Part shown: piece after piece, positions 9,653-50,900 of the stretch
Numbering within the stretch: the first letter of the stretch is position 1
Layout of the letters: each line of letters starts with the position of its first letter
Assembly (NCBI GenBank): GCA_964016885.1
Contig: OZ024740.1
Span: forward strand, 407,774,001-407,838,000
Reading direction: 5' to 3'
From: Eledone cirrhosa
Lineage: Eukaryota
DNA length: 64,000 nt
Notes under the pieces: generated by a model
What the model was told of the DNA's origin: nothing
The model's database searches: none
The model's input: only the letters and a program-made list of their open reading frames with translations
Position numbers and translations under genes: made by a program

Positions 9653-9738
<86 letters not shown>

Positions 9739-10826: not shown

Positions 10827-10946
10827 AAAAAAAGATGAAATCGAAAATGCAACTGGAGTCTTATTTTTTAAAAAATATATATATTTATTTGGTTCCTTTA
10901 CCGGTTTCGCAGTTCTTCTGCTTTTCAAAAGTATATATGTATTCAT

Positions 10947-15000: not shown

Positions 15001-15464
15001 AGCTAAGACGCTTGCCTACGACTAGTCTCGCAGAGGCACCTCTCCATCTCACCTCTTGCACGCAGCATACATCCACCTGCCTTCTCTCCAGCATCTCCGC
15101 TATTTCAGCAGATCTACCTCTGAGAGTGCCAACATTAAGTGTTGCAACTCTGAGATGCGATGTCTTCATATTTTGTTGTTGTTCCTATTTGTTGCTGTGC
15201 TGATAAGAGTTTTGGCATTGATACACTGGTTGGATGCCCTTCCTAACACCAGCGCCACTTTACAGCATGGACTGGGTGCTTTTATTTGTGCCACCAGCAC
15301 TAGAGAGGATGTCTTACTAGACTCAAGGGCCCTCTCTACCCCTCCATTTTACAGCATGGTCATAACAAAAAAAAAAACTTATTGACACGACGCACGCACA
15401 CACACACAACACTCATGCATACAAACCACAACCACACACACGCCACTCACATACCAACACTCAT
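12073..15464 (-). mobile_element. RTE LINE subfamily A, near full length, disrupted (copy A2)
   Basis: ORF pieces 14906-15169, 14397-14783, 13608-14390, 12102-13562 (YADD). Highly similar to A1. (GAT)n tail. Confidence 0.95.
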
Positions 15465-18306: not shown

Positions 18307-18497
18307 TATTAAAATAACAGATTAAAGTTTAAGCAAATAATCGCTGCTTTCACCCTTAACAGGATCAAAGCAGTGATTCTTTGCTTAAACTTTAATCTGT
18401 TATTTTAATAAATATTTGGTTGTTATATATTTTATACATATTTATCGTTATCAAGACCTCTTTGGATTTTTGTCTTCACATTTATTATTATAACTAT
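18307..18497 (+). mobile_element. Fold-back mini-element in (TA)n, probable PLE footprint
   Basis: 44-bp inverted arms 18307-18350 / 18367-18410 plus a ~87-bp tail. A shorter relative is at 50386-50465. Confidence 0.6.
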
Positions 18498-18539
18498 ACA
18501 TTTATCTATATATATATATAAACATATATCTATATATAC

Positions 18540-18874
18540 ATCATCATCATCATTTTATGTCTGCTTTTCCCTGCTTGCAAGGGTGGGACGGGAACTGATT
18601 CTGGCTTGATTTCTACAGCTGGATGCCCTTCCTAACACCAACCTCATTTACAGTGAATGCTGGGTGCTTTTTTCCGTGGCACCTCCACGACCACTTTGCC
18701 GTGGAATGATATGGACCCCAGTCCCTACCATCTCATTTCTACAGCTGAGTAAACTGGAGCAATGTGAAATAAAGTGTCTTGCTCAAGGACACAACACATC
18801 ACCCAGTCTGAGAATTGAACTCACAACATTTCGATTGCAAGGCCAATGCTCTAACCACTAAGCCATGTGCCTCC
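18540..18874 (-). mobile_element. CORE-SINE family 1, RTE-A-type tail
   Basis: Reverse-complement match to 10947-11293. Confidence 0.9.
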
Positions 18875-19023
18875 ATATATATATCTATATATACAAATAT
18901 CATCACCATCATCATTTAACATCCATTTTTCACGATAGCATGGGTGAGACATATTATATATATATATATAGATATAGATATATATATATATACAAACCTC
19001 CTGATATAAATCAGGAACCCACC

Positions 19024-19363: not shown

Positions 19364-19767
19364 TTGGGCTTGCAATTGAAAGGTTGTGAGTTCAATTCTC
19401 AGACCGGGTGATGTGTTATTTCCTTGAGCAAGACACTTTATTTCACATTGCTCCAGTTTACTCAGCTGTAAAAATGAGATGATAGGACTGGGGTCCATAT
19501 CATTCCACTGCAAAGTGGTCGTGGAGGTGCCACAGCAAAAAAGCACCCAGGCCACACTGTAATGTGGACGTTTAGGCGCCACGGAAAAAAAGCACCCAGC
19601 ACTCACTGTAAATGAGGTTGGTGTTAGGATGTATAAATCAAGTCAGAATCAGTTCCTGTATGAGCAAGACAAGGTCAGCCGACTGGACACTGCCCACAAC
19701 AGGACAACCCGTCTAACCCATGCTAGCATGGAAGAACGGATGTAAAACGATGATGATGATGATGATG
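19364..19767 (+). mobile_element. CORE-SINE family 1, slightly 5'-truncated, RTE-B-type tail, long flanking duplication
   Basis: Body as 10947. The 3' part matches 31620-31740. Flanked by a 57-bp direct repeat. Confidence 0.9.
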
Positions 19768-20673
19768 AATTCATAGAAGTCTTCCCTGCAAATGGAATTA
19801 TGTATAGTGTGCTGTGCAAAATATACAAACAAGAATATAACGAAATTTCTATCTTGATGTGATGTTTCTCGGGATTTAATGAAATTACTTTTGACTGTTT
19901 TTAAGCAATGAAAATGTCTGAACTGTTACAAAATAGCGTTTTTATCTTGAAATTTTTTAGCAACTAATTTTAAAGTTATTTCAAATAAATAGAATTTCTT
20001 CAAGCAATAGTTTAAAATCTGATAAAAGTCAATTTTTATATCCATGTATGATGAAATATAACAATGCATTAAATATTATAGAAGTTAAGGTAATTGTTTA
20101 AAAATAAATAATTTTTAGGTAAATATATAAAACAAATCATCATCATCATCATCGTTTAATGTCCACTTTTCATAATTGTATTTGTTCAGCAAATGATTTA
20201 ATCAAAGACCAAATATTGAAAAAAATCACGGTAGAGCTATTTTATCTATGTAAAAACACAAAAACTGTTATATGTATTCTTTAAGATCAATGTGGAATAA
20301 TTTTAACCAACCTATGTACACAGGTCCTCTTGTGAATAACTTTTGAGCTAAGACTATGTTTTGTGATTATTTCAGAATAATATGTTATAAGCAGAATAAG
20401 ATTAAATGCTTAACAAATATTACCATAACCTTGGTCATAATTGTAGATTTTGGAACTTTGTCTTTCCGAACAAGCAATAAAAGGCTCATAAGAAGTATAA
20501 GAAAAATCTGATAAAAAGTTAACTCGAACATAGACATGTCTTTAATAGCATACACACACACATTTACATACAAATGCCAAGATTTCCCCAATGAAATAAA
20601 GGAGCTACTGGAAGAGGCAGGGAAAATTAAAACTATTTTCTGGAGCTAAAGTAGGTAAAATATGCAAGTTTGA

Positions 20674-21249: not shown

Positions 21250-22314
21250 TTATATATATATATATATTCAAAAGTAAGGGTTTTTTTTTTTATATATCCC
21301 ACATAAGTAAAAATATAGGAAAAAGAAGTTGAAAAGACAATTGGAGCCTTTAAGGTTTATTTACAATAATTTGTAACTTTACTGGTATCATGAGTTTCAT
21401 GATTTTCAAAGGTTAAGAGAGATGGAGGGATGTGTGGCTATGCTGACTTATAACTCACATCTGTTGCCAGACACTTAACATACATTTTACTGGGGAGGCT
21501 TAACAAGGAGATCCTCTATAATTGGAGCATTCTCTCTTTTTTTAAAATTGGGATTACCACCTTCAGTTGCTACTACTTAAGTACCTTTGCAGCGACTCAG
21601 GCCACCCAGCACACATGAATATCTTCTTTATTTAAGACAGATTCATCCTCCCCAACTCTTTAATTGCTCTTATGATCTCAACCTCTCTCCCAGATCCACC
21701 TGGTGTACATCAGAAGATGCTGTTATGCCCAGGTTTACCAGGTCAGCAAAGTGATCTCTCCCCCATGTAAAGATGCATCTCTCTGAAGAAAGGAGAACCC
21801 CAGATACATTTCTGATAGTAGGTGTGGAAGAGGACTTATTATAAAGTCAGTGGATAGTCTGCCAGAACACTTTATTAGCTGATCTGAAATCAGATTCTAG
21901 GTTAACCCCAAAATCTTCCCGTGTCTTAACTTTGGACACCTTTACTGTCTTAGCTGTGACTTTTTGCACCTGCTTTTACCACAAGTGTAAGAAGGGGTGA
22001 AAAGGCTCCCAGTCGACACTGAAAATGTGGTTGGTGTTAGGAAGGGCATCCAGCAGTAAAAAACCTGCTAGGGATGCTTCTGTGCGAGCGAGACATGGTC
22101 TCCCGACCATTCCCGCATCAAATGGAACAAAACCGTTTAACCCATGCTAACATGGAAAATGGACGTCAAATGATGATGATATATATATATATATATATAT
22201 AATAATAATGGAAATTATTGTGTACAGTGCACTAAAACTTTTCAAAGGTGCATATATAGTCAATAGAATAATGAACAAACGCCAGGAAAGTGAAGAGTAT
22301 GAGTCATGATACAT

Positions 22315-22700
22315 ATCATCATCATCATCGTTTAACGTCCATCTTCCACGCTAGCATGGGTTAGACGGGAGTTGTGCCACTTGAGGCAAGGCTGGTCGGG
22401 TGACCGTGTCTCGCTCATATAGGACTATCTGGCAGGTTTTCTACGGCTGGATGCCCTTCCTAACACCAACCACATTTACAGTGTGGAACTGGGAACTTTT
22501 TACCGTATTTCCTACACGGCTACATTACAGTGTGGACTGTGTGTTTTTTTGTCGTGACACCTACACGATCTCGATCTCATTATCTCATTTATTTGGACTG
22601 GATGTTGTGGTACCAACTTTACAGAGAGAGGGTGGTGTTGGTGGGAGTGGGAGAATAGGGTAGGGGTAGTGGATTGGGGTGTATATTTAGTTAGAAGATG
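22315..22700 (-). mobile_element. RTE-C-like 3' UTR only
   Basis: Matches 37481-37850. A similar piece is at 51840-52140. Confidence 0.85.
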
Positions 22701-25488: not shown

Positions 25489-26812
25489 TAGTCAAATTAG
25501 ATAAGATGCAGTTCAGTTTTATGCCTGTAAGAAGTAGAACAGGTGCCCACTTCTTAGTGAGACAACAACAAGAGAAGTTCCACACCAAGAATAAGCAGCT
25601 ATATTTAGTTGTTGATATATAAATGGCCTTTGACAGAATACCTCGATCTATCATCTGGTGGTCCTCAAAGAATTTAGGTATAGAAGAATGGCTTATAAGA
25701 GCAGTGCAAGCCATGTATAGAAGAGCTGTCAGTAAAGTGAGAATAGGAAGTGAGTTTAGTGAGAAATTCAGGTTACAAGTAGCTCAGTCCTCAGCCCACT
25801 TCTTTCAATCATAGTTCCCCAGGCCATAACAGAGAACTATACAACTGGCTGACAATGTGGATGGTCTGGTTCTTATAGCTGAATCCATAGAACAATTAGA
25901 GAATAAATTCCAACTGTGGAAATAGAATTTACAATCAAAAGGGTTGAGAGTAAACTTAGAAATGAAACTAAAATGTTAGTAAGCAGGAAAGAATACAAGA
26001 CCCTAGTTCTATCAGGGAAGTGGCTGTGTTTTCTATGCAGAAAAGGAGGAGGCACAGACTCTATATCTTGATTAAACAAGAGATGTAGTTGTATAGCAGG
26101 CAAACTAATAGGAAAGGAAAACTTCATATGTAATAGAGGCACAGGGGTAATCAATAGGAAGAGCATCAGTGATATAAACCTTTTCCAGTCCCATGAAAGA
26201 TCCATAGAAGTGACTGATAGCTTCTGCTACCTAGGTGTTCTAATTAGCAGTAGAGGAAGGTGCTCTGAATAAGGATAGGATGGAAAAAGTTTAAAGAGCT
26301 ACTCCTCTGTTAACAACAAAAGGTTTTTCTCTACGAATGGAAGGGTGGCTGTATGATGCTTGTGTGTGAAGTACAATGTTGCATGATAGTGAAATATGAG
26401 CAATGACTGCAGAGGACATGTGTAGGCGGGAGATAAATGATGCAACCATGCTTTAATAGATATGCAATGTGAGAGAACGACAGAGCTTGGATGATCTGTG
26501 AGAGAAACTGGGTTTAAGATGATTCTGATGTAGTGTGCAAAGGGGAAGACTGCATTGGTATGGACATGTGATGCACATGGATGATGATCGATGGGTGAAG
26601 AAATGCCAGGAAATCCCAGTAAAAAGAAGCTGTAGTAGAGGTAGACCAAAAAAGACCTGGGCAGATGTGGTGAAAGCTGATCTCCAATTGTTGAAATAAC
26701 AGAGGAGATGATGAAGGAACACAGTAAGTGGAGAGATGCTTTGCTAAAAAAGATTTGCCTAACCCATGGAAGTTTGGAAAACTGGATGTAAAAATAACAA
26801 TGATGATGATGA
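25489..26812 (+). mobile_element. Old degenerate RTE, RT to 3' tail
   Basis: AFDRIPRSIIWWS...; many stops and indels; (GAT)n tail at about 26800. Confidence 0.88.
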
Positions 26813-26820
26813 TATATATA

Positions 26821-28049: not shown

Positions 28050-31000
28050 TTATTTACCATGCGACCCTCAGTTCCTACCTCACATCCCTCCCCCCCCCAC
28101 CCCCACATACCACCATAGTCTATTCGACCAATCAAACCTAGCATGCCATTTCCACTGCTGCTGCTACTACCTGCCTAACTAACTCTCTCCTCCTCTGGCG
28201 CATCCCAACACACCCTGCCATTACCCCACCACCACTGTTCTTCTAGCCCTCAATTTTCCCACCGTTATGGATGGATGAGCTGAGAATACATTTGAGCAAC
28301 TCTGAATCAATAGATGAAATATGAATCTGCGAGCTACCAAGCACCCACGTGAAGCGCCAACCCAGAGACCCTCCCCTACGAGTGTCGACAAATGCCCAAA
28401 ACTCCGAGTTGGTACCATAAATGTAGGCTCAATGAAAGGAAGAGCAGGAGAAATCGTAGAAATGCTAGAGCGAAAGGAAGTTGATGTATGCTATGTGCAA
28501 GAGACTAGATGGAGAGGAGGGTCTGCTAGAGTCCTTGTAGGAAAAAGCCAGTGCTACAAATTTTTCTGGGTGGGAAATGACGATGGGATGGGTGGTGTAG
28601 GTATACTACTAGCTGACAAGTGGGTAGATAAAGTAATCTCAGTGTACAGGGTAAATGCAAGAATCATTAAACTCAGACTAGTCCTGAATAAGACAATTAC
28701 CACAATAATATCAGCTTACGCACCCCAATCGGGGCTGCCAGACGAACTTAAGGATAGGTTTTACGAGTCCCTAATACACACTACTGCTCTAACAGACGAC
28801 AAGGACTTCCTAATCATTGCAGGAGATTTTAACGGACACGTAGGTAAACACTGCGACGGCTTCAATAGAGTACATGGAGGCCATGGAGTTGGCACAAGGA
28901 ATGAGGAAGGATTCAGACTTCTAGAATTCTGCGACGCCAATGACATGTCGATATGTAACACAAACTTTAAAAAACCTGACAACCACCTGATCACCTATAG
29001 ATCAGGGGAGCACTCTAGTCAGTTAGATTTTATCCTCATCAGAGGACGTGACAGATGGACGGTCGTAAACACAAAAGCCTTCCCTAGTGAGGAATGTACA
29101 TCCCAACATAGCTTAGTTGTCAGCGACCTCACGGTCAGAACTAGACGAGCCCTGAAACAGAGGCCAACCTGGAGAAGAAAGATCTGGAAGCTGAAAGTCC
29201 CCTCAACCAGTAACAGATTTAAAGATATTTTACTCAACGCCTACGACAGTAAAGAAGAACAGATAGAGACATTTAACGTAGAAGAGAACTGGGAGTTCCT
29301 AAAAAATAACTTACTAGAGGCGACGGATGGGGTTTGTGGCTGGAGTAAGACCTCAAGCAGGAGGAGAGTGACTTGGTGGTGGAACAATAAGGTAGATGAA
29401 GCAGTCAAGGCCAAGAGACAGGCATGGAAAGAATGGAAGAACGGGGGGAGCAGGGTACATTACATAGAGACCAAGAGGGAAGCTAGGCGACAAGTATACT
29501 TAGCTAGGAGGGAAGCAGAGGATAGAAAATTCAAGCATGTTTTACAACGTGAGGACCAGAAACAGGAGGTATTCAAGATTGCGAGGCAGTGTGTCAGAGA
29601 TAGTTGTGATGTCATTGGAGAGAAGTGTATCCGGAATGATAAAGGTGAGCTTGCCCTCACAAGTGCTGAGAAGAAAGATGCATGGAAGAGTCATTATGAT
29701 AGATTACTAAATGAGGAGAATGCATGGGAAGAAGAGACCCTACCCCATGTAGACCCTATAGAGGGACCAGCAGTACAAGTCAGCGGCAGCATAGTAAGTA
29801 AGGCAATCAGAGATATGAAGATGGAGAAGGCAACCGGTCCATCGGGTATAGCTGCCGAGATGCTGAAGGCATCTGGGTCTGTAGGTCACACTATAACCAC
29901 ACGTATCGTTAACCAGGTAATACTAGAAGGGGCCATACCAAAAGATTGGTGCAGTAGCATCATTGTCAACTGCTACAAAGGTAAAGGCGATGCACTAGAT
30001 AGAGGAAACTATAGAGGTATAAAGTTGATGGACCAGGTCATGAAAGTAACAGAAAGAGTTATAGCACAGCTGATTAGGGACCGGGTGAATATAGACGAGA
30101 TGCAATTTGGGTTTGTACCAGGGAGAGGCACCACTGATGCCCTCTTCCTTGTGAGGCAATTACAGGAAAAGTACCTAGCTAAAAGTAAGCCACTCTACTT
30201 GGCATTTGTCGACCTTGAGAAAGCCTTTGACAGAGTTCCACGTGCAGTAATCTGGTGGGCTCTTAGAAAACTAGGAGTAGATGAATGGCTTGTGAAAGCG
30301 GTACAAGCCATGTATAGGGGAGCAGTCAGCAAAGTTAGGATTAGCAATGAGTATAGCGAGGAATTTAGCGTACAGGTTGGGGTCCACCAGGGCTCTGTTC
30401 TTAGCCCTCTCCTGTTCATCATAGTCCTGCAGGCAATAACGGAGGAGTTTAAGACCGGATGCCCATGGGAACTCCTGTATGCTGATGACCTCGCACTCAT
30501 AGCTGAATCTATGGTAGAACTAGAGAATAAATTCCAAACCTGGAAGCAGGGACTAGAGAGAAAGGGCCTCAAAGTCAACATGACAAAGACTAAGGTCCTT
30601 GTAAGTAGACGAGAAAACAGAACCCAGATCCCCTCAGGGAAATGGCCTTGCTCAGTATGTAGGAAAGGTGTAGGTAGGAACTCCATTCTCTGCCCCAAAT
30701 GCAAACAATGGGTACACAAGAGATGTAGCGGGATCTCAGGAAGCTTAATTAAGAATATAGGATTCACATGCAGCAGCTGTGCTGAAACAGCAAGCAAACA
30801 GCCACAGGAAACAAGTACCACCAATCTCTGGGAGGGCCCTGTAGAAACAGTAGACAGCTTCTGCTACCTAGGTGACCAAATTAGCAACGGAGGTGGGTGC
30901 TCAGAAAGTACAATAACTAGGGTAAGAACGGGATGGAAGAAGTTTAGGGAACTACTACCACTGCTAGCTGCAAAAGGCTTCTCCCTCAGAATGAAAGGCA

Positions 31001-31741
31001 GACTGTATGATGCGTGTATCCGAACAGCGATGTTGCATGGTAGTGAGACCTGGGCGCTGAAGGTGGAAGACTTACGTAGATTAGAGAGAAACGAAGCCTG
31101 CATGCTCCGATGGATGTGTAACAGTAATATACGTGAACGACAAAGCATAAAGGAATTGAGAGAGAGACTGAGCATAAGAGGAATCAAATGCTGCGTGCAG
31201 GAGAGGCAGTTACGCTGGTATGGACATGTGATGCGTATGAAGGATGACAGCTGCATAAAAAGGTGCAGAGCACTAGAAGTTGATGGAAACCGCGGAGTGG
31301 GGAGACCCAAGATGACTTGGGATGAGGTGATAAAAGCCGACCTTACCCAACTACACCTCTCAAAGACAATGACACACGACCGTGACTTCTGGCGTCACGC
31401 AGTAATACAGGGTACCCGACCTCCCATGGGTACATGCTGAAGCATATAAACAATATGCCCCCACTCCCCCACCGCAAGGTGGTCGTGGAGGTGCCACGGC
31501 AAAAAAGCACCCAGCCCACACTGTAAAGTGGACGTGTAGGCGCCACGAAAAAGCACCCAGCACTCAGTGTAAATGAGGTTGGTGTTAGGAAGGGCATCCA
31601 GGTGTAGAAATCAAGCCAGATCAGTTCCTGTATGGGCAGGACAAGGTCAGCCGACTGGACACTGCCCCCAACAGGACAACCCATCTAACCCATGCTAGCG
31701 TGGAAGAATGGACGTAAAACAGTGATGATGATGATGATGAT
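28050..31741 (+). mobile_element. RTE LINE subfamily B, apparently full length
   Basis: C-rich 5' UTR, intact ORF, ~300-bp structured 3' UTR, (GAT)n tail into (TA)n. 5' boundary approximate. Confidence 0.95.
28321..31440 (+). CDS. RTE polyprotein: APE endonuclease and reverse transcriptase with PHD-like insertion (1039 aa, intact)
   Basis: GTINVGSM, VQETRW, GDFNGH, SQHSLV (APE); QFGF, DLEKAFD, GVHQGSVLSP, YADD, FCYLG (RT). Confidence 0.95.
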   Translation: MNLRATKHPREAPTQRPSPTSVDKCPKLRVGTINVGSMKGRAGEIVEMLERKEVDVCYVQETRWRGGSARVLVGKSQCYKFFWVGNDDGMGGVGILLADKWVDKVISVYRVNARIIKLRLVLNKTITTIISAYAPQSGLPDELKDRFYESLIHTTALTDDKDFLIIAGDFNGHVGKHCDGFNRVHGGHGVGTRNEEGFRLLEFCDANDMSICNTNFKKPDNHLITYRSGEHSSQLDFILIRGRDRWTVVNTKAFPSEECTSQHSLVVSDLTVRTRRALKQRPTWRRKIWKLKVPSTSNRFKDILLNAYDSKEEQIETFNVEENWEFLKNNLLEATDGVCGWSKTSSRRRVTWWWNNKVDEAVKAKRQAWKEWKNGGSRVHYIETKREARRQVYLARREAEDRKFKHVLQREDQKQEVFKIARQCVRDSCDVIGEKCIRNDKGELALTSAEKKDAWKSHYDRLLNEENAWEEETLPHVDPIEGPAVQVSGSIVSKAIRDMKMEKATGPSGIAAEMLKASGSVGHTITTRIVNQVILEGAIPKDWCSSIIVNCYKGKGDALDRGNYRGIKLMDQVMKVTERVIAQLIRDRVNIDEMQFGFVPGRGTTDALFLVRQLQEKYLAKSKPLYLAFVDLEKAFDRVPRAVIWWALRKLGVDEWLVKAVQAMYRGAVSKVRISNEYSEEFSVQVGVHQGSVLSPLLFIIVLQAITEEFKTGCPWELLYADDLALIAESMVELENKFQTWKQGLERKGLKVNMTKTKVLVSRRENRTQIPSGKWPCSVCRKGVGRNSILCPKCKQWVHKRCSGISGSLIKNIGFTCSSCAETASKQPQETSTTNLWEGPVETVDSFCYLGDQISNGGGCSESTITRVRTGWKKFRELLPLLAAKGFSLRMKGRLYDACIRTAMLHGSETWALKVEDLRRLERNEACMLRWMCNSNIRERQSIKELRERLSIRGIKCCVQERQLRWYGHVMRMKDDSCIKRCRALEVDGNRGVGRPKMTWDEVIKADLTQLHLSKTMTHDRDFWRHAVIQGTRPPMGTC

Positions 31742-34454: not shown

Positions 34455-35822
34455 CTGGTAGCACAACCCAATAAACATTGACTTGATAATCAATCACAGA
34501 ATGTTAACACTAGAGTTGCAGCTGTATTTCTCTGCTTACTCCCTCTGCTACTGCTGCTGAAATTCTCCACATATGTGACATCAACTTTAATTATTTACCA
34601 GGTGATAACAAAGGGGAAATATCACTCAGTTGTGATGTGTAGTGCATAGTTGAAAAAAAAAACTACTGTGTTATATATATTTTCCCCAATAATATCCAAA
34701 CTACATGGAAAAAAATAAATAAAAATAAGGGGATGGAACAAAATAATTTGATAAATAAATTCTATAGTTGATCACTTTTATTAATAAATGAATAATTAAT
34801 ATCCAATTAGTTTTTTTAAGTATGGCCAATAAGAAATAGTTTTCAGTCTAAGATATCCTTGATTTATTTATAGGGTTACTAGATTTTAAAAATATGATAA
34901 ATATTTAGTTATTTTGTAGATTTACCTGTATTTTTTCTTTTATATACATGTTCATATTTATAAAATATTTTATAAATAATACAACTCTAATGTCATAACA
35001 CCTTGGCTTCAGACATAGATATTCATTTAATCATTTCAGAACATAATCAGAAAATATTTAACTCTGAGCAAATAATAATTTATATGTAAAAATGAAGGGG
35101 AGTTGGTCAAGGAATAATGAAAGAAAAAGAAGGGAGGGAGGGAGAGAGAGAGAAAGAGAGAGGGAGGGAGGAAAGGTTGACTGATTGGCTACTGCAAATT
35201 TCACACTATAAATACACTTAGAGTATAATTTACTACTATACAGCAACAATTGCAATGGAATTATAAAAATTGCAGGCATGCACTCAATGCATGTAAACAC
35301 CTTCATTTTCTTTATGTAAAATGAAAATAAAAGTATAACAACATTTTGATATTAAATGATTCATGTAACACAATAAGAATAATAACAACAACAACAACAA
35401 CAATAATAATAATAATAATTGATTTTACTTTTGGCAGAAGGCCAGCAATTAACCAGTGTATTACTGGTACTTTATTTTACCGACCCTGTAAGGATGAAAG
35501 GCAAAGTTAACCTCGGCGGGATTTTAATAATAATAATAATAATAACGCTTTCTTTATTAGCCACACAGGGCTCACATTAAGAAAACATTAAAGATGGTAC
35601 AGGATGATACAGCATGGTTTTTCTTTGTGTGTAAAATAAAATTCATAACAGAAATTAAGAAAATAAATAAAATAATAATATTAATCTCTTATTTGCTAAT
35701 AAGAGCATTGGATAAAGGAGACATTAGAAAGACAAGTTACAACATTAAGGTAGGGGTTTACATAGAAATGAGAAAATGTGTAACAACTCATTCATTTTCC
35801 TGACATTTGTACGTTATTCTGT

Positions 35823-36247
35823 GAAGGCGCATGGTTTAGTGGTTAGAGCATTGGGCTTGCAATCGAAAGGTTGTGAGTTCAATTCTCGGACCGGGTGATG
35901 AGTTGTTTCCTTGAGCAAGACACTTTATTTCACATTGCTCCAGTTTACTCAGCTGTAGAAATGAGATGATAGGACTGGGGTCCCTATCATTCCACTGCAA
36001 AGTGGTCGTGGAGGTGCCATGGCAAAAAAGCACCCAGCCCACACTGTAAAGTGGACGTGTAGGCGCCACGGAAAAAAAGCACCCAGCACTCACTGTAAAT
36101 GAGGTTGATGTTAGGAAGGGCATCCAGCTGTAGAAATCAAGCCAGAATCAGTTCCCGTATGAGCAAGACAAGGTCAGCTGACTGGACACTGCCCACAACA
36201 GCATGGAAGAACAGACGTAAAACGGTGATGATGATGATGATGATGAT
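35823..36247 (+). mobile_element. CORE-SINE family 1, RTE-B-type tail
   Basis: Match to 19364-19767 with full tRNA head. Confidence 0.9.
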
Positions 36248-36850
36248 ATACATGCACCTTTAATGAGTTGTAGTGCACCTGAGCACTGTACACAATAATT
36301 TCATTATTATTAAGTACACATAGTAAACAAGTTAGGGATACATAGTATATGATTATATAAAGCGTTAATTTCTCCTGGTACAGAGTGCTGAATATCCAAG
36401 GCTAATCGAGGAAATCCACAGATTCAATCACTGTGACCACTAAGGGCAAGTGCACTTTCATAACTGTCATTGTCCAACCTACAGGCACAAGCTGAGAGTA
36501 AACTAATTCACTCATGCCATTTTCTCAACTTTCACCCACCTTTTTGGTAAATGTATTGGATGGGAGCACCTCCCTCTCCACCCTCACCTTCCTTTCCAAA
36601 TGAAACTTGAAAAAGTTGATGATAGCTTGACTGAAGAAGGATGTGTCTGTTTTGAGTCATTTCTATCATGTCCACCACACAACCTCTGTTATCATAATAA
36701 TAAGAGATGTATTAAAATTAACTACAATGAGTTGTATTTCATGTTAAGTATGTTCTTTTCTATTTCTTAACATCTCTACGATATATTTCAAATACTGAGT
36801 CTAATGCAGGACAGTGGACAGTGCCAAGAGCTTTTTTAATACCTCTTTAA

Positions 36851-37075: not shown

Positions 37076-37480
37076 TTGATGTGTGTCCTGTTTAATTTCA
37101 ACTTCTGTCAGCTGATACTTATACAGAAAACAGGAAGGGGGGACAGTTCGGGTGAAAAATTCAGTGTGGTATTTGTTGGATGAAACAAGGCATAACTAGA
37201 GGACAAGAGACAAGTATATCAGAATAGCATATCTAACTCCAAAGCCCTAACCTTAAATATCTTTTCAGAGTTATTTTGCTTAATGAAAACAACTGGATTC
37301 TTTTGGAATCCATTTTTGGCTCTTTGTTATATAATTAATAATACAATAAAATATTAGCAGATATCATCATCATTATCCACAGTTTAATGTCCATTTTTCC
37401 ATGCTAGCATGGGTTAAGTTAATAACCAGATGATTGTTTGGTTGTTGATTGTCAAACCTCTTCATTCTTTGACCAACAAT

Positions 37481-40320
37481 ATCATCATCATCATCATCAT
37501 CGTTTAACGTCCATGTTCCACGCTTGCATGGGTTTGGACGGGAGTTTTCCCACTTGAGGCAAGAGTGGTTGACTTGCTTGCATAGGACTGCCTGGCGGGT
37601 TTTTTTACAGCTGGATGCCCTTCCTAACACCAACCACATTTACAGTGTGGGACTGGAAGGTTTTTACCGTGTTGCCTACACGACCACATTACAGCGTGGA
37701 CTGTGTGTTTTTTTGTCGTGACATCTACACGATCTCATTTGTTTCGGCCTGGATATTGTGGTACCAACATAACTTTACATTGAAAGGGCGGTGTGGATGG
37801 TGTGGGGGTGGTGGGACGGGGGAGTATTTTGTTAGAGATGCCTACTGACTGTAGTAGGTTTTACTTTGTATTTAGGTAAGGCGGGTCTTCTCTATTACTG
37901 AGTACCGCCAAAGGTCTCGGTCCAGTGACATTGTCTTGGAGAGGTGTAAGTGTGTGAGGTCGGAATTTATCAGCTCGTTCCAGGTTTTTCTGGGTCTGCC
38001 TACTCCGTAGCTACCGTCCATCTTTATTGCCCTGCACTTTGTTATACAGCTGTCGTCTTTCATGCACATCACGTGACCATACCAACGTAGCCTTCTCTCG
38101 AGTAAACAACATCTGATCCCTCTTATTTCTAATTTTTTCCTTAGTTCGTTTATGCTTTGCCGTTCACGTATATTACTATTACACATCCAGCGGAGCATGC
38201 AAGCTTCGTTCCTTTCTAGTCTGCGTATATCCTCTGCACACAATGCCCAGGTCTCGCTGCCATGCAACATTGCTGTTCGTATGCAGGCATCATACAACCT
38301 GCCTTTCATTTTTAGGGAGAACCCTTTAGCGGCTAATAGTGGTATAAGCTCTCTGAACTTTTTCCATCCAGTTCTGACTCTAGCTACTGTACTTTCAGAG
38401 CACCCTCCCCCACTGCTGATTTTGTCACCCAGGTAACGGAAGCTGTCCACTATTTCTATAGAACCTCTGTGCAATTGAAAGAGCTAGTATTTTGTGGGCA
38501 CTTGCTGCTACTTATTGCACCAGAGCACCGGCCACATGTAAAATCTATGTTCTTAGTTAGCTTACCTGTGATCCCACTACATCTTTTATGCACCCATACT
38601 TTGCATTTGGGACATAAAATGGAGTTTCTGCCTACTCCTTTCCTACACACTGAGCTTGGCCACTTCCCGGAAGGGACCGCTGCCTTATTTTCTTTCTTAC
38701 AAACTAGAACTTTAGTCTTAGCCAGGTTAATTTTAAGGCCTTTTGATTCTAGGCCGTGCTTCCATGTTTGGAATTTCTTCTCTAGCTTGGCCATTGATTC
38801 AGCTATGAGCGTTTGATCATCTGCGTATAGGAGTTCCCATGGGCAGCCGGGCTTGAACTCCTCTGTTATAGCCTGAAGGGCAATAATAAATAGTAGGGGG
38901 CTAAGAACAGAGCCCTGATGGACACCAACTTTTACGCTAAATTCTTCACTATATTCGTTGTTAATTCTAACCTTGCTGACTGTTTCTTTATACATGGCTG
39001 GTATAGCTCTCACAAGCCATTCGTCAACACCTAGTTTTCTAAGAGCCCACCAGATAATGGAATGGGGGACTCTGTCAAAGGCTTTCTCCAAGTCGACAAA
39101 AGCTAAGTATAGGGGTTTACTTTTAGCTAGGTACTTCTCCTGTAGTTGTCGTACAATGAAAAGAGCGTCTGTGGTACTTTTGCCTGACACAAACCCGAAC
39201 TGCATTTCATCTAGATCAATTCTCTCTCTGATTAGTTGTGCTATTACTTTTTCCGTGACCTTCATGACCTGGTCAATTAATTTAATGCCTCTATAGTTAC
39301 TCCTATCTAGGGCATCTCCTTTACCCTTATAACAGTTAATGATGATGCTGCTACGCCAGTCCTTCGGAACAACCCCATTCTGTACGACTTGGTTTACTAT
39401 CCGGGTGACCATGGTGTGTCCCACCGTTCCAGATGCCTTCAGCATCTCAGCAACTATTTCCGAAGGCCCAGCCACCTTACCCGTCTTCATATCTTTGATT
39501 GCCTTACTTATTATACTAACCTCGACTAACACTGCTGGTCCCTCTATTGGGTCGATGTGGGGGAGACTGTCTTTCTCCCATTTATTCTCCTCATTTAGTA
39601 GCCTTTCGTAGTGACACTTCCAAGCTACCTTCTTATCAGCGTCGGTGATGGCAAGTATGCCATCATCATTAAGGACACACTTCTCCCCGACAATATCACG
39701 GTTTTCCTTGACACATTGCCTAGCAATCCTGAACACCTCACGTTTTTGGTGCTCGCGTTGTAGAACATGCTTGAACTTTCTTTCCTCTGCTTCACTTCTT
39801 GCGAAGTACACTTGTCTCCTAGCTTCCCTCCTGGCCACTTGATAGTCTTCTCTACTTCCCCCATCCCACCATATTTTCGAAGCCTGCTTTTTGGCCTTAA
39901 TTGACCCCTCCACCTTACTGTTCCACCACCATGTTACTCTCCTCCTGCCTACAGGCCTGCTCCAGCCACAGACTTCGTCTGCCACCATCAGCAGGTTTGC
40001 TTTCAGGAATTCCCACTGTTCCTCTATATTGTACGACTCTAATTGCTCTTCCTTACTGTCAAAAGCATCAAGTAGTATGCTTTTAAATTTATTTCTGGCT
40101 GTGGGGTCCTTTAGCTTCCATATTTTTCTCCTGAGGATAGTCCTCTTCTGCTGTCTAGTACGTCTCGTCCTGACTATTAGGTCACTAATTATCAGTCTAT
40201 GTTGGGAGGTGCATTCTTCATGGGGGAGGGATTTAGTGTTTACAACAGACACTCTGTCACGTCTTCTTGTAAGGATATAATCTACCTGGCTTGTGTGTTC
40301 CCCCGATCTATAGGTGATCA
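37481..40320 (-). mobile_element. RTE subfamily C, 5'-truncated, frameshifted
   Basis: ORFs 38456-40252 and 37872-38474; single-unit 3' UTR; (GAT)n tail. Confidence 0.95.
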
Positions 40321-43004: not shown

Positions 43005-43329
43005 GGAGGTACATAGCTTAGTGGTTTGAGCATTGGCCTTGCAATCAAAAGGTTGTGAGTTCAATTCTCAGACCGGGTGATGTGTTGTTTCCTTGAGCAA
43101 GACACTTTATTTCACATTGCTCCAGTTTACTCAGCTGTAGAAATGAGATGATAGAGACTGGGGTCACTATCATTCCACTGCAAAGTGGTCGTGGAGGTGC
43201 CACGGCAAAAAAGCACCCAGCACTCACTGTAAATGAGGTTGGTGTTAGGAAGGGCATCCAGCTGTAGAAATCAAGCCAGAATCAGTTCCCGTCCCACCCT
43301 TGCAAGCAGGGAAAAGCGGACGTAAAATG

Positions 43330-43331
<2 letters not shown>
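43005..43331 (+). mobile_element. CORE-SINE family 1, RTE-A-type tail
   Basis: Match to 10947-11293. Confidence 0.9.
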
Positions 43332-43384: not shown

Positions 43385-43827
43385 TATACATATATATATA
43401 CATATATATATACATATATATATATATACATATATATACATATATATATACATATATATATACATATATATATATATACATATATATATACATATATATA
43501 CATATATATACATATATATATATACATATATATACATATATATACACATATATATATACATATATATACATATATATATATACATATATATACATATATA
43601 TATATATACATATATATACATATATATACATATATATATATACACATATATATACATATATATATATACATATATATATACATATATATACATATATATA
43701 TATACACATATATATACATATACATATATATATACATATATATATATACACATATATATACATATATATATATACATATATATATATACACATATATATA
43801 CATATATATATATACATATATATATAC

Positions 43828-46800
43828 ATCATCATCATCATCATCATCAGGTTTAGCGTCCGTGTTCCACGCTTGCATGGGTTTGGACGGGGGTTTTCCC
43901 ACTTGAGGCAAGAGTGGTTGTCTTGCTCGCATAGGACTGTCTGGCGGGTTTTCTACAGTTGGATGCCCTTCCTAACACCAACCACATTTACAGTGTGGGG
44001 CTGGGAGGTTTTTACCGTGTTGCCTACACGGCCACATTACAGCGTGGACTGTCTGGCTGGTTTTCTACAGCTGGATGCCCTTCCTAACACCAACCACATT
44101 TACAGTGTGGGGCTGGGAGGTTTTTACCGTGTTGCCTACACGGCCACATTTACAGCGTGGACTGTGTGTTTTTTGTCGTGACACCTACACGATCTCATTT
44201 GTTTCGGCCTGGATGTTGTGGGACCAACATAACTTTGCATTGAAAGGGGCGGTGTGGGTGGGGTGGAGGTGGTGGGACGGGGGTGTGTTTTGATAGAGGT
44301 GCCTACTGACTGTAGTAGGTTTTTACTTTGTATTTAGGTAAGGCGGGTCTTCTCTATTACTGAGTACCGCCAAAGGTCTCGGTCCAGTGACATTGTCTTG
44401 GAGAGGTGTAAGCGTGTGAGGTCGGAATTTATCAGCTCGTCCCATGTTTTTCTGGGTCTGCCTACTCCGTGGCTACCGTCTATCTTTATTGCCCTGCACT
44501 TTGTTATACAGCTGTCGTCTTTCATGCGCATCACGTGACCGTACCAACGTAGCCTTCTCTCGAGTAAACAACATCTGATCCCTCTTATTTCTAATTTTTT
44601 CCTTAGTTCGTTTATGCTTTGCCGTTCACGTATATTACTATTGCACATCCAGCGGAGCATGCAAGCTTCGTTCCTCTCTAGTCTGCGTATATCCTCTGCA
44701 CACAATGCCCAGGTCTCACTGCCATGCAGCATTGCTGTTCGTATGCAGGCATCGTATAACCTGCCTTTCATTTTTAGGGAGAACCCTCTAGCGGCTAATA
44801 GTGGTATAAGCTCTCTGAACTTTTTCCATCCAGTTCTGACTCTAGCTACTGTACTTTCAGAGCACCCTCCCCCACTGCTGATTTTGTCACCCAGATAACG
44901 GAAGCTGTCCACTATTTCTATAGAACCCTCTGCGCAGTTGAAGGAGCTAGTATTTTGTGGGCACTTGCTGCTACTTATTGCACCAGAGCACCGGCCACAT
45001 GTAAAATCTATGTTCTTAGTTAGCTTACCTGTGATCCCACTACATCTTTTATGCACCCATACTTTGCATTTGGGACATAAAATGGAGTTTCTACCTACGC
45101 CTTTCCTACACACTGAGCATGGCCATTTCCCCGATGGGACCGCCGCCTTATTTTCTTTCCTACAAACTAGAACTTTAGTCTTAGCCAGGTTAATTTTAAG
45201 GCCTTTTGATTCTAGGCCGTGCTTCCACGTTTGGAATTTCTTCTCTAGTTCGGTCATTGATTCAGCTATGAGCGTTAGATCATCTGCGTATAGGAGTTCC
45301 CATGGGCAGCCGGTCTTGAACTCCTCTGTTATAGCCTGAAGGGCAATAATAAATAGTAGGGGGCTAAGTACAGAGCCCTGATGGACACCAACTTTTACGC
45401 TAAACTCTTCACTATATTCGTTGTTAATTCTAACCTTACTGACTGTTTCTTTATACATGGCTTGTATAGCTCTCACAAGCCATTCGTCAACACCTAGTTT
45501 TCTAAGAGACCACCAGATAATGGAACGGGGGACTCTGTCGAAGGCTTTCTCCAAGTCGACAAAAGCTAAGTATAGGGGTTTACTTTTAGCTAGGTACTTC
45601 TCCTGTAGTTGTCGTACAATGAAAAGAGCGTCTGTGGTACTTTTGCCTGACACAAACCCGAACTGCATTTCATCTAGATCAATTCTCTCTCTGATTAGTT
45701 GCGCTATTACTTTTTCCGTGACCTTCATGACCTGGTCGATTAATTTAATGCCTCTATAGTTACTCCTATCTAGGGCATCTCCTTTTCCCTTATAGCAGTT
45801 AACGATGATGCTGCTACGCCATTCCTTCGGAACAACCCCATTCTGTACGACTTGGTTAACTATCCGGGTGACCATGGTGTGTCCCACCGAACCAGATGCC
45901 TTCAGCATCTCAGCAACTATTTCCGAAGGCCCAGCCGCCTTACCCGTCTTCATATCTTTGATTGCCTTACTTATTATACTACCTTCAACTAACACTGCTG
46001 GTCCCTCTATTGGATCGATCTGGGGGAGACTGTCTTTCTCCCATTTGTTCTCCTCATTTAGAAGCCTTTCGTAGTGACACTTCCAAGCTACCTTCTTATC
46101 AGCGTCAGTGATGGCAAGTACACCATCATCATTAAGTACACACTTCTCCCCGACAATATCACGGTTTTCCTTGACGCATTGCCTAGCAATCCTGAACACC
46201 TCACGTTTTTGGTCATCGCGTTGTAGAACATGCTTGAACTTTCTTTCCTCTGCTTCCCTTCTTGCGAAGTACACTTGTCTCCTAACTTCCCTCCTGGCCA
46301 CTTGATAGTCTTCTCTACTTCCCCCATCCCGCCATACTTTCCAAGCCTGCTTTTTGGCCTTAATTGACTCCTCCACCTTACTGTTCCACCACCATGTTAC
46401 TCTCCTCCTACCTACAGGCCTGCTCCAGCCACAGACTTCGTCTGCCGCCGTCAGCAGGTTTGCTCTCAGGAATTCCCACTGTTCCTCTATATTATACGAC
46501 TCTAATTGCTCTTCCTTACTGTCGAAAGCGTCAAGTAATTTGCTTTGAAATTTATTTCTGGCTATGGGGTCCTTTAGCTTCCATATTTTTCTCCTGAGGA
46601 TAGTCCTCTTTCGCTGTCTAGTACGTCTCGTCCTGACTATGAGGTCGCTAATTATCAGTCTATGTTGGGAGGTGAATTCTTCATGGGGGTGGGATTTAGT
46701 GTTAACAACAGACACTCTGTCACGTCTTCTGGTAAGGATATAATCTACCTGGCTTGTGTGTTCCCCCGATCTATAGGTGATCAAGTGATTGTCTCGTTTT

Positions 46801-47724
46801 TTGAAGTTAGTGTTACAGATAGTTAAGTTATTTGCGTCGCAGAATTCCAGGATTCTGGAGCCTTCCTCATTTCTAGTACCGAACCCATAGCCTCCATGGA
46901 TTCCGTCATAGCCGTCACAATGTTGTCCAACGTGACCATTTAGGTCGCCTGCAATAACTATATAGTCACTGTCGGTTATTTGGGAGGTAGCGAGCATCAG
47001 TGTCTCGTAGAATCTGTCTTTTATAGCGCGGGGCTGTCCGGATTGGGGTGCGTACGCAGATATTACTGTCACCGTAGTTTTATTGAGGACAAGTCTTATT
47101 TTAATTATTCTGTCGTTCACTCTATTTACGTCTATTATCTTATCTGCCCACTTTTCTGCTACCATGATTCCTACCCCACCCAACCCATTGTCATTTCCCA
47201 CCCAGAAAAGCTTATAGCATCGCTCTTTACCCACGATGAATCTAGCCGACCCTCCCCTCCACCTGGTCTCTTGAATACAACAAACATCGACCTCCTTACG
47301 TTCAAGCATTTCTACAACCTCGTTAGAGCGACCCTTTAAGGTGCCTACATTCATGGTACCAACTCTGAAGTTTTGGATTGCGTTTGGAGGGTGGGAGCGG
47401 TGGGGCGCGGGGGGGGATGGGGTTATGTTAGCCATCCTGGGCCGAAACAAGGAGGAGTGCTTGCATTCTCGTCCACGAGGTGAATTTGGCTTTATCTTTG
47501 GCATTGTCGCTGAGCGTCCACATTTTTCTCTCTTCAACTCTCCAGGATTCCGTAGTCCATCCATCATATCGAAAAGCAACCAGTTAAGCGATAGTATGGG
47601 CCTCTGACTTATGATTGGTCCACGTAATAATGGTGGTGCGTGGGGGCGGGAGGGAGGGCTGATGGGTTGTTAGCGAGAATGTAAGGTTTAAGATAAGATC
47701 GCCGTATTTTGGGCATGATTTAAC
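43828..47724 (-). mobile_element. RTE LINE subfamily C, apparently full length, within (TA)n
   Basis: Intact ORF, ~500-bp 3' UTR with duplicated unit, (GAT)n tail, TA tracts on both sides. Confidence 0.95.
44334..47579 (-). CDS. RTE polyprotein: APE and RT with PHD-like insertion (up to 1081 aa, intact; true start uncertain)
   Basis: GTMNVGTL, IQETRW, GDLNGH, SQHRL; DLEKAFD, QGSVLSP, YADD, FRYLG. Confidence 0.95.
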   Translation of the reverse strand: MLFDMMDGLRNPGELKREKCGRSATMPKIKPNSPRGRECKHSSLFRPRMANITPSPPAPHRSHPPNAIQNFRVGTMNVGTLKGRSNEVVEMLERKEVDVCCIQETRWRGGSARFIVGKERCYKLFWVGNDNGLGGVGIMVAEKWADKIIDVNRVNDRIIKIRLVLNKTTVTVISAYAPQSGQPRAIKDRFYETLMLATSQITDSDYIVIAGDLNGHVGQHCDGYDGIHGGYGFGTRNEEGSRILEFCDANNLTICNTNFKKRDNHLITYRSGEHTSQVDYILTRRRDRVSVVNTKSHPHEEFTSQHRLIISDLIVRTRRTRQRKRTILRRKIWKLKDPIARNKFQSKLLDAFDSKEEQLESYNIEEQWEFLRANLLTAADEVCGWSRPVGRRRVTWWWNSKVEESIKAKKQAWKVWRDGGSREDYQVARREVRRQVYFARREAEERKFKHVLQRDDQKREVFRIARQCVKENRDIVGEKCVLNDDGVLAITDADKKVAWKCHYERLLNEENKWEKDSLPQIDPIEGPAVLVEGSIISKAIKDMKTGKAAGPSEIVAEMLKASGSVGHTMVTRIVNQVVQNGVVPKEWRSSIIVNCYKGKGDALDRSNYRGIKLIDQVMKVTEKVIAQLIRERIDLDEMQFGFVSGKSTTDALFIVRQLQEKYLAKSKPLYLAFVDLEKAFDRVPRSIIWWSLRKLGVDEWLVRAIQAMYKETVSKVRINNEYSEEFSVKVGVHQGSVLSPLLFIIALQAITEEFKTGCPWELLYADDLTLIAESMTELEKKFQTWKHGLESKGLKINLAKTKVLVCRKENKAAVPSGKWPCSVCRKGVGRNSILCPKCKVWVHKRCSGITGKLTKNIDFTCGRCSGAISSSKCPQNTSSFNCAEGSIEIVDSFRYLGDKISSGGGCSESTVARVRTGWKKFRELIPLLAARGFSLKMKGRLYDACIRTAMLHGSETWALCAEDIRRLERNEACMLRWMCNSNIRERQSINELRKKLEIRGIRCCLLERRLRWYGHVMRMKDDSCITKCRAIKIDGSHGVGRPRKTWDELINSDLTRLHLSKTMSLDRDLWRYSVIEKTRLT

Positions 47725-47789
<65 letters not shown>

Positions 47790-48353: not shown

Positions 48354-48362
48354 CATATATAT

Positions 48363-48701
48363 ATGGCTTAGTGGTTAGAGCATTGGCCTTGCAATCGAAA
48401 GTTGTGAGTTCAATTCTCAGACCGGGTGATGTGTTGTTTCCTTGAGCAAGACACTTTATTTCACATTGCTCCAGTTTACTCAGCTGTAGAAATGAGATGA
48501 TAGGGACTGGGATCTCTATCATTCCACTGCAAAGTGGTCGTGGAGGTGCCACGGCAAAAAAGCACCCAGCACTCACTGTAAATGAGGTTGTTGTTAGGAA
48601 GGGCATCCAGCTGTAGAAATCAAGCCAGAATCAGTTCCCGTCCCACCCTTGCAAGCAGGGAAAAGTGGACGTAAAATGATGATGATGATGATGATGATGA
48701 T
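48363..48701 (+). mobile_element. CORE-SINE family 1, RTE-A-type tail
   Basis: Match to 10947-11293. A tail-only insertion follows at 48989-49042. Confidence 0.9.
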
Positions 48702-49084: not shown

Positions 49085-50340
49085 CATCATCATCATCATC
49101 ATCATCATCATTTAACATCCATCTTCCACGCTTGCATGGGTTTGGACGGGAGTTTTCCCACTTGAGGCAAGATTGGTTGTCTTGCTCGTATAGGACTGCC
49201 TGGCGGGTTTTCTACGGCTGGATGCCCTTCCCAACACCAACCACGTTTACAGTTTGGACTGGGAGGTTTTTACCGTGTTACACGGCCACATTACAGCGTG
49301 GACTGTGTGTTTTTTTTTCATGACACCTACACAACCTCATTTATTTCAGACTGGATGTTGTGGTACCAACATAACTTTACATTGAAAGGGGTGGTGTGGA
49401 TGGGGTGGGGGTGGGGGGAAGGGGTGTATTTTTGTTAGAGGTGCCTACTGACTGTAGGTTTCGCTTTGTACTTAGGCAAGGCGGGTCTTCTGTATTACTG
49501 TATAGCGCCAAAGGTCTCGGTCCATTGACATTGTCTTGGAGAGGTGTAAGTGTGTGAGGTCGGAGTTTATCAGCTCGTCCCAGGTTTTTCTAGGTCTGCC
49601 TATTCCGTGGCTACCGTCTATCTTTATTGCGCTGCACTTTGTTATACAGCTATCGACTTTCATGCGCATCACGTGTCCATACCAGCGTAGCCTTCTCTCG
49701 AGTAAACAACATCTGATTCCTCTTATTTCTAATTTTGTCCTTAGTTCGTTTATGCTTTGCCGTTCACGTATATTACTGTTACACATCCAGCGGAGCATGC
49801 AAGCTTCGTTCCTCTCTAGTCTGCGTATATCCTCTGCACACAATGCCCAGGTCTCACTGCCATGCAACATTGCTGTTCGTATGCAGGCATCGTACAACCT
49901 GCCTTTCATTTTTAGGGAGAACCCTTTAGCAGCTAATAGTGGTATAAGCTCTCTGAACTTTTTCCAACCAGTTCTGACTCTAGCTACTGTACTTTCAGAG
50001 CACCCTCCCCCACTGCTGATTTTATCACCCAGGTAACGGAAACTGTCCACTATTTCTATAGAACCCTCTGCGCAATTGAAAGAGCTAGTATTCTGTGGGC
50101 ACTTGCTGCTACTTATTGCACCAGAGCACCGGCCACATGTAAAATCTATGTTCTTAGTTAGCTTACCTGTGATCCCACTACATCTTTTATGCACCCATAC
50201 TTTGCATTTAGGCCATAAAATGGAGTTTCTACCTACGCCTTTCCTACACCCCGAGCACGACCATTTCCCAGAAGGGACCGCCGCCTTATTTTCTTTCCTA
50301 CAAACTAGAACTTTAGTCTTAGCCAGGTTAATTTTAAGTC

Positions 50341-50343
<3 letters not shown>
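49084..50343 (-). mobile_element. RTE subfamily C, heavily 5'-truncated
   Basis: ORF 49472-50194 plus 3' UTR and tail. Confidence 0.93.
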
Positions 50344-50388
<45 letters not shown>

Positions 50389-50512
50389 TAAAATAACAGA
50401 TTAAAGTTTAAGCAAAGAATCGAGCCCTCTTTGGATTTTAGTCTTCAAATTTATTATTATTACTATATATATATATATATATATATTTTATATATAAACA
50501 TATATTATATAT

Positions 50513-50900
50513 GGAGGCACATGGCTTAGTGGTTAGAGCATTGGGCTTGCATTCGAAAGGTTGTGAGTTCAATTCTCAGACCGGGTGATGTGTTGTTTCC
50601 TTGAGCAAGATACTTTATTTCACATTGCTCCAGTTTACTCAGCTGTAGAAATGAGATGATAGGGCTGGTGTCCCTATCATTCCACTGCAAAATGGTCGTG
50701 GAGGTGCCAGGGCAAAAAAATCACCAAGCCCACACTGTAAAGTGGACGTGTAGGCGCCACGAAAAAAAAGCACCCAGCACTCAATGCAAAAGAGGTTGGT
50801 GTTAGGAAGGGCATCCAGCTGTAGAAATCAAGCCAGAATCAGTTCCCGTCCCACCCTTGCAAGCAGGGAAAAGCGGACGTAAAATGATGATGATGATGAT
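50513..50900 (+). mobile_element. CORE-SINE family 1, two internal units, RTE-A-type tail
   Basis: Match to the other copies. Confidence 0.9.

Follow-up and report, generated by a model that had tools for sequence, protein, structure and literature searches.

The window, i.e. the whole 64-kb stretch of DNA analysed here, is retroelement-dense and hosts four related families of single-ORF LINEs, termed RTE-A, -B, -C and -D (Table 1). Their ORFs encode an AP endonuclease, a reverse transcriptase (RT) and a PHD finger; Pfam matches to Exo_endo_phos, RVT_1 and PHD were obtained in B and C, and for A the RT/PHD half was scanned. RTE-A, -B and -C display the hallmarks of the RTE clade, namely a 3' terminal hairpin, (GAT)n tails and 5'-truncated copies, and sequencing depth climbs from 5' to 3' across the element (run X1). 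The two RTE-A copies are 96.5% identical and their flanks differ. No convincing target-site duplication was seen for five LINE copies, which are flanked by TA repeats or by other insertions. The window LINEs form one well-supported clade that includes a protein annotated from Octopus vulgaris, so that the host of this animal DNA is probably an octopod; their link to named RTEs is a 5' core in common with RTE-2/4_EBu, the trees containing only unnamed relatives.

Table 1 Coordinates of RTE copies, of the 3' untranslated region (UTR) of RTE-B and of the SINEs in the window
Feature	Position	Strand	Remarks
RTE-A copy 1	3058..6432	-	terminus overlaps stop (3086-3127)
Module in 5' UTR of RTE-A copy 1	6160..6252	-	
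RTE-A copy 2	12078..15464	-	adjoins B-family fragment
Module in 5' UTR of RTE-A copy 2	15200..15298	-	
Old A-group 3' half (A3)	25491..26820	+	terminus at ORF end
RTE-B single ORF	28318..31440	+	1040 codons between stops; domains: AP endonuclease, reverse transcriptase, PHD finger
RTE-B spacer, stop to module	31441..31468	+	28 nt; 74% identity over 47 nt with older B-like fragment; longer spacer of C unalignable
GNRA-loop hairpin	31469..31482	+	shortened copy of the second hairpin of the repeated unit; SINE homology starts here
Module unit 1 (tandem copy)	31490..31531	+	
Module unit 2	31539..31577	+	
Conserved core	31580..31604	+	stems of 4 bp (outer) and 3 bp (closing an AGGGCA loop), separated by an internal loop; homologous to RTE 5' UTRs
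Linker	31605..31678	+	also present in C and in two orphan 3' fragments
Two-helix hairpin of the RTE 3' terminus (31679-31714), with (GAT)n tail	31679..31741	+	
Older B-lineage 3' fragment (Bf53)	52855..53232	-	ORF end, spacer, module, terminus
RTE-C with open ORF (47669-44334)	43822..47725	-	3' UTR: two units, core, 112-nt internal duplication, linker, terminus
RTE-C, 5'-truncated	7324..9658	-	same 112-nt internal duplication as copy 43822..47725
RTE-C, 5'-truncated	37479..40320	-	without duplication
RTE-C, 5'-truncated	49089..50344	-	
C-type 3' UTR fragment without ORF	22309..22667	-	
C-type 3' UTR fragment without ORF	51834..52140	-	
Orphan module, linker and terminus	21995..22180	+	truncated LINE end or free bipartite element
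RTE-D	54002..56507	+	in B/C clade; 3' end missing
tRNA-CORE SINE	10933..11290	+	B-type module, A-type tail (4-nt deletion)
tRNA-CORE SINE	18489..18897	-	B-type module, A-type tail
tRNA-CORE SINE	19364..19768	+	B-type module and tail; 17-nt flanking duplication
tRNA-CORE SINE	35822..36250	+	B-type module, B-type tail (terminus partly deleted)
tRNA-CORE SINE	43005..43331	+	B-type module, A-type tail
tRNA-CORE SINE	48360..48700	+	B-type module, A-type tail
tRNA-CORE SINE	50500..50900	+	two-unit B-type module, A-type tail

Other repeats surround these elements. Just upstream of RTE-B lies a 126-nt near-perfect palindrome (27739-27864, z -20), with a related piece at 51731-51830, that blurs the 5' boundary of the LINE. 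It contains words which I take to resemble a hammerhead core; Rfam returned no hammerhead match in the palindrome, which may represent a Penelope-like end. Likewise, ORF remnants at 1538-2305 (-), 17348-17824 (-) and 41932-43016 (+) are presumably GIY-YIG/Penelope-like, and Pfam gave no match in the pieces 1541-2305, 41932-42471 and 42519-43013. Nested insertions are suggested by two B-family fragments, one at 11793-12077 (94% identity to B) adjoining RTE-A copy 2 and one at 40321-41082 (99%) adjoining a C copy. Two further repeat families, unrelated to the module described below, occur at 31932-32152 and 52410-52600, and at 32578-32807, 36834-37071 and 61997-62234; one of them has, by eye, a tRNA-like head.

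A module of about 90 nt recurs in these retroelements at different positions. In RTE-A, both copies have it 5' of the ORF, at 64 and 77 nt upstream of where the endonuclease begins, as an earlier, sequence-only reading of this DNA had claimed; that B and C carry it after the stop codon, ahead of an RTE-type terminus, holds as well, for RTE-B, for the older fragment Bf53 and for four RTE-C copies. Two C-type fragments devoid of an ORF show this order too. The core of the module begins 146 nt past the stop in B and 246-248 nt past it in three C copies, the fourth (at 49.2 kb) having a variant core detected by a covariance model. The 5' region of RTE-A is not a stray insertion, an eventuality considered in that reading, for it occurs in two copies and copy 1 has an in-frame ATG 13 nt past the core. 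RTE-A had also been described as ending in GGACGT(GAT)n across its stop codon: the terminal hairpin does overlap the stop, but a few A's stand between GGACGT and the repeat, and the (TGA)n tail begins 2 nt past the stop. The RTE-A 5' UTR also contains, upstream of the module, a partial duplicate of its own second hairpin (6290-6313 and 15336-15359, minus strand), and no recognisable ribozyme.

With the covariance model, which included window sequences, 20 places in the window score strongly, at 36-80 bits, and the runner-up scores 14.7. An HMM built from outgroups only recovers 19 of these 20 places, together with one false match inside the B ORF (decoys reach at most 4.7 bits); the place it misses is the SINE at 19.6 kb, in which the core bears a deletion. 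Upstream of B, C and D, the nearest same-strand core lies thousands of bases off (one copy each), and no joint from the module back to the B 5' region appears among the best 15 of 734 joints in the run contigs. The 5' end of B and C may lack the module, each of B, C and D being represented by a single copy that is possibly truncated. Contigs of two of the four runs (X10 and X5) span ORF, stop and module; at about 99% identity to the window they do not stand for a separate lineage, and the X13 contig, which reaches only 22 nt past the stop, is left out of the count. The window is SINE-dense (7 in 64 kb), so that chance SINE insertions downstream of individual LINE copies, or an assembly error, might be imagined to mimic the arrangement; this is scarcely credible, given that six separately placed copies have the ORF end, the spacer and the module in common, and that the X10 and X5 contigs run across the junction.

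The module of RTE-B is built on a tandem unit of about 47 nt. The hairpin with a GNRA loop singled out in the sequence-only reading is intact in B, in five of the seven SINEs and at 53109-53122, and is broken in the other two SINEs; since its variation comes down to one compensatory change and the hairpin is itself a shortened copy of the tandem unit, it is weak evidence by itself. The RTE terminal hairpin covaries, with 87% of positions paired and 15 double changes. No conserved mini-ORF was seen in the 3' block, and a possible third, degenerate module in the C spacer is marginal (p 0.01, 0.06 and 0.08). The 112-nt internal duplication (43940-44051 and 7437-7548, minus strand) supplies a second core to two C copies and is absent from the other two; hence amplification of the module continues in active lineages.

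The alignment of 26 sequences gives the core two stems, one of 4 bp and one of 3 bp that carries a six-base loop, with an internal loop between them. Pairing holds in 96% of cells with 13 double changes, a result reached in 0 of 500 shuffles and above all slid controls, the structure being derived from the same alignment used for these counts. One core pair interchanges C-G and U-G (13 and 13 sequences). Folded as single sequences, neither the A module (z 0.27) nor the C module (z -0.15) reaches significance, and the best fold of B is without the core stem. The weakness of such folds, as well as the high conservation of the sequence itself and not only of the pairing, would suit a module acting as DNA, be it as internal promoter or as enhancer (a role on which Kojima 2018 speculates in the case of RTE 5' pieces), or else a neutral passenger of the 3' UTR. 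Either option appears improbable, in that the compensatory changes and the C-G/U-G interchange point to RNA, and a neutral passenger would not be expected to be conserved beyond synonymous sites. Between hagfish and the window lineage the core hardly changes, with proteins about 50% identical.

For the module, Rfam has no matching family, whether in the window or across 26 loci, where its output consists of repeat-driven miRNA noise, weak tRNA heads and a twister-like match in L056; likewise, no known ribozyme fold was matched by Rfam in the window or in 12 outgroup loci. Custom ribozyme descriptors found none in the window, the HDV descriptor having recovered no positive control. Self-cleavage was dropped as a function of the module, both for want of a fold match and for the fact that cleavage would sever ORF and terminus. 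The core was also considered for a GUC/GGC pseudoknot, an idea abandoned since the middle position varies freely. Nor is the module the conserved RTE 5' domain, or the Ceph domain's 3' half, of Kojima 2018: the sequence differs and the core words are absent from the supplement of that paper. In L005, the module and the motif of that RTE 5' domain lie side by side. Viral contigs gave no match by protein or motif.

The relatives comprise 79 metagenome and 18 genome-contig loci, of which the first 85 were tallied, the other 12 being distant or bacterial RTs. The module lies upstream of 13 out of 16 outgroup RTE ORF starts, each with at least 243 nt of upstream sequence (L025, L057 and L080 are without it). 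It precedes the tail at none of 42 outgroup ORF ends, four of which have less than 50 nt of downstream sequence, and one downstream match, in L081, is the 5' UTR of a second element. An HMM built from the window only independently found the 13 outgroup modules, with three scoring below the best decoy. The module is also 5' in two hagfish elements (RTE-2_EBu, RTE-4_EBu), according to the supplement of PMC7245038, and in close proteins (e.g. P0136, P0204 and P0018) the terminus is read in frame at the ORF end. The 5' position seen in RTE-A is therefore ancestral, and the 3' position in B and C is derived; an ancestrally 3' module, the contrary case envisaged in the sequence-only reading, was not found among the 42 ORF ends.

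The protein tree supports the A group (SH-aLRT 96) and the B/C/D group (98); in a second tree the latter receives 100/99 and a grouping of A with B is rejected (p-AU 0.0002). Module distances match the protein tree, identity being 78% between B and C, 67% between A and B, and 62% between A and C. The block formed by module, linker and terminus is 72-75% identical between B and C vs 53% at third codon positions, a difference for which later exchange, in place of selection, could account. This block (31469-31741) and its C equivalents join a 5' UTR piece to a 3' terminus with no ORF in between, which is the build of a bipartite element. Because B and C stand together against A, module identities match the tree and the linker is common to both, one origin of the block, by a single capture of a bipartite element (5' UTR piece plus terminus) in the B/C ancestor, is the simplest history. 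The idea that B and C captured such an element, put forward from the sequence alone, is upheld as far as the build of the block goes; the reverse flow that it invoked would be an older event, likely in the B/C ancestor and unlikely in the present SINEs.

In the proposed course of events, the common ancestor of B and C would have joined the bipartite non-autonomous element behind its ORF, either by a template switch during reverse transcription or by reading through into an insertion downstream; at the ORF end, the former terminus would have decayed, and the 5' UTR of B and C would have been replaced. Free bipartite elements with the module, either headless or tRNA-headed, exist in L045, L059, L072, L037 and L082. 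The compact tRNA SINE of L082 is present in two copies (2338-2435 and 373-466, minus strand), each with head, module, RTE terminus and apparent target-site duplications. No free donor family of the block was identified in the window, where 21995-22180 could be such a copy or a truncated LINE end, and the block bears no sign of a tRNA head in the donor.

The donor could be dispensed with if a 5' UTR fragment had been inserted between the ORF and its own terminus, e.g. by head-to-tail recombination or by a double template switch. Tandem RTE copies do exist (L081), the B/C termini are typical of the clade and name no donor, and the old terminus is not convincingly detected at the ORF end past its first four codons (B scores -0.5 bits vs a background 95th percentile of -1.6, C is at background). 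Still, the first terminus codons are present both where the ORF ends and within the working terminus, module-bearing bipartite elements arise repeatedly and, as a weak clue, the block keeps an ATG 28-33 nt past the core in five of nine copies checked, all of which makes a donor-free origin rather improbable. As for the captured element, the ATG located in the linker of B, 32 nt past the core, may be the fossil start codon of the donor. P0121 and P0122 form a third group within the clade, whose ORF also ends without the terminus peptide, and a module-bearing 3' UTR is predicted for it; in view of the uncertain place of this group in the tree, there may have been more than one capture.

The tRNA-CORE SINEs of the window consist of tRNA head, CORE, module and tail, in this order. 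Their heads score 26-29 bits with the Rfam tRNA model, just under the gathering score, in four of seven copies; A and B boxes were placed by eye, and ARAGORN found no tRNA gene in the SINEs. In a by-eye comparison, the CORE (35909-35965) resembles BivaCORE-SINE2 as given in the supplement of PMC4824008. A 17-nt target-site duplication flanks one of the two SINEs tested. The tails match either A, at 40-41 of 42 nt in four copies, or B. As to the module, it is 89-91% identical to the last unit of B vs 69-71% to A, and the three two-unit copies are 91-94% identical to the B block. Twenty-eight sites unite the SINE and the B lineage against C; the remaining informative sites group the SINE with B (5), with Bf53 (2) or outside both (0). 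The B-to-SINE direction draws on this 5 vs 2 vs 0 distribution and on a support of 0.89.

Since Bf53 and C already carry the block behind the ORF and the SINE nests in the B lineage, the window SINEs likely took the module from B, which is the usual LINE-to-SINE flow. The claim that the module moved into the SINE body is thus sustained by all seven SINEs, with the amendment that its source would be the B 3' UTR and not an A-type 5' UTR. The SINE would have taken the whole B 3' UTR as body and tail; five copies likely switched thereafter to the A terminus at a 5-nt microhomology, a subfamily keeping the B module.

The opposite, possibly repeated flow, in which the B and C lineages would separately have acquired the 3' portion of a tRNA-CORE SINE, with 3' ends still passing to and fro between SINEs and LINEs, draws on a number of observations: B and C spacers do not align and SINE homology begins exactly at the block edge, the block is more alike between B and C than third codon positions are, Bf53 is grouped with the SINE by two sites, and tail swapping is shown for the SINE. 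Moreover, the CORE 3' hairpin (35950-35965) resembles the second hairpin in the last unit of the B module (31563-31577; p 0.016, uncorrected, best of five tests), a likeness that may be due to chance, conversion or old homology between CORE and RTE 5' UTR, and that leaves the reverse direction some probability. Even so, a flow from SINE to LINE is unlikely: the sites placing the SINE outside B plus Bf53 number 0 vs 5, no remnant of head or CORE is found in the B or C spacers (p 0.37-0.73), and module distances match the protein tree.

The retention of a piece of the LINE 5' UTR by RTE-mobilised SINEs bears on function. In this respect, a coding LINE with the module past its stop codon is a natural experiment, under which the piece would be needed on the RNA, not at a fixed end. 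In 12 of the 13 outgroups the in-frame ATG that opens the ORF lies 26-48 nt past the core, with a core-to-endonuclease distance of 157-333 nt. This fixed spacing to the start codon points, tentatively, to a ribosome-side loading signal. Five SINEs pair a B-type module with an A tail, and for this reason the module is unlikely to be family-specific. I infer, partly by analogy, that it helps to bring the RNA together with RTE protein just synthesised, the ribosome being the likeliest site; the module would likely load this protein onto the RNA from either end. Along this line, 5' ribozymes in RTEs and cap-independent translation have been reported (PMC6765202, PMC8501958), which is in keeping with the Twister-P1-like sequence of L056 (333-412; E 2.5e-4, under the gathering score) that ends where the module begins. 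The Alu domain offers an analogy for ribosome-side loading, as treated in PMC7245038.

With the same history, the module might be bound directly by the RTE protein and work with the terminal hairpin in target-primed reverse transcription. SINEs, which are non-coding, and a 3' UTR do retain the module, at places where a start-codon role is moot; the R2 protein binds its own 5' RNA (part of PMC6765202), and RTE gene-writer templates, as presented in PMC13708176, include both UTRs. However, direct binding leaves the fixed start-codon spacing unexplained, and it sits uneasily with a core so invariant between hagfish and the window lineage at such protein divergence, and with a B module pairing with an A tail. 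It is a candidate mechanism only a little less probable than docking at the ribosome or at initiation factors, which is favoured.

Taken together, the data make it fairly probable that the module is a conserved, covarying RNA element of RTE 5' UTRs, likely brought to the 3' end of B and C by an ancestral bipartite capture and likely serving as a position-independent loading signal. A bolder version, unlikely to be right in all its parts, would have a LINE lineage rebuild its 3' end from its own parasite and drop its 5' UTR, the module being a portable ribosome-side signal and the RTE counterpart of the Alu domain. If true, each 5'-truncated B or C copy would be a ready-made bipartite element, a LINE 3' end could turn into a "bipartite" SINE tail in one step, and a cycle would link LINE and parasite, each supplying the other. 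Bipartite SINE tails may thereby have a second route of origin. In addition, the covarying core and the fixed start-codon spacing pinpoint mutations, and the module is relevant to template design, as RTE-based gene insertion uses both UTRs.

Among known systems, RTE-2_OV of Octopus vulgaris (PMC9115989) has, by its description, a single ORF, a zinc-finger domain and a microsatellite right at the ORF end, like RTE-A; that description, the basis of the comparison, mentions no module-bearing 3' UTR. More generally, no autonomous RTE with the module in its 3' UTR was found in the papers compared, which also include PMC13282606, PMC3747384, PMC4758252 and PMC13295347; octopus RTE sequences so arranged may be contained in the supplements of PMC9115989. 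The rearrangement is real, polarised, made of known parts, and apparently undescribed. The 5' ribozymes of RTE and R2 elements (HDV-like, with twister variants in Perere-3; PMC8501958) are likewise structured 5' RNAs, engaged in processing and cap-independent translation; the module, by comparison with what that paper presents, lies on the downstream side of the ribozyme and corresponds to none of the ribozyme families.

The closest sequence match is in hagfish. RTE-2_EBu, RTE-4_EBu and SINE1-1/2-1/2-1B/2-9/2-10_EBu (Kojima 2020, PMC7245038) have the same core sequence as the window elements; in the supplement file of that paper all seven cores reside in LINE 5' UTRs (2) or SINE tails (5) and, unlike in B and C, none in a LINE 3' UTR, and no structure or function is given there. 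In Nicotiana RTEs, 5' UTR switching as outlined in bioRxiv 10.1101/2022.11.04.512097 involves exchangeable 5' ends, such as would have existed in B, C and D; in those elements the 3' UTR is conserved, whereas in B and C it is rebuilt. A precedent for reverse flow is provided by Ingi-3_AC and R4-1_ADi, two LINEs that, in the account of Kojima 2018 (PMC5786205), gained an RTE/Ceph-like 5' domain, possibly from a SINE; they differ from B and C in that the domain has another sequence and was gained in the 5' UTR, across clades and with no change of end.

Finally, the main text of the same paper describes RTE derivatives of bipartite build and the part they play in SINEs, together with tail exchange and with two LINEs whose 5' UTR gained an RTE 5' domain. 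Its bipartite non-autonomous RTEs and its SINEs with RTE 5' and 3' parts (Bov-tA, Mar-1, WALLSI2 and SINE2-2_ACar) contain, like the elements of the window, a 5' UTR piece plus an RTE terminus, and its SINEs have the tRNA-CORE-RTE5'-RTE3' layout and the tail exchange in common with the window SINEs. In that account, however, the block belongs to non-autonomous elements, whereas in the window it constitutes the 3' UTR of coding LINEs, from whose 3' end, in contrast to the SINEs described there, the window SINE likely obtained it in one piece.
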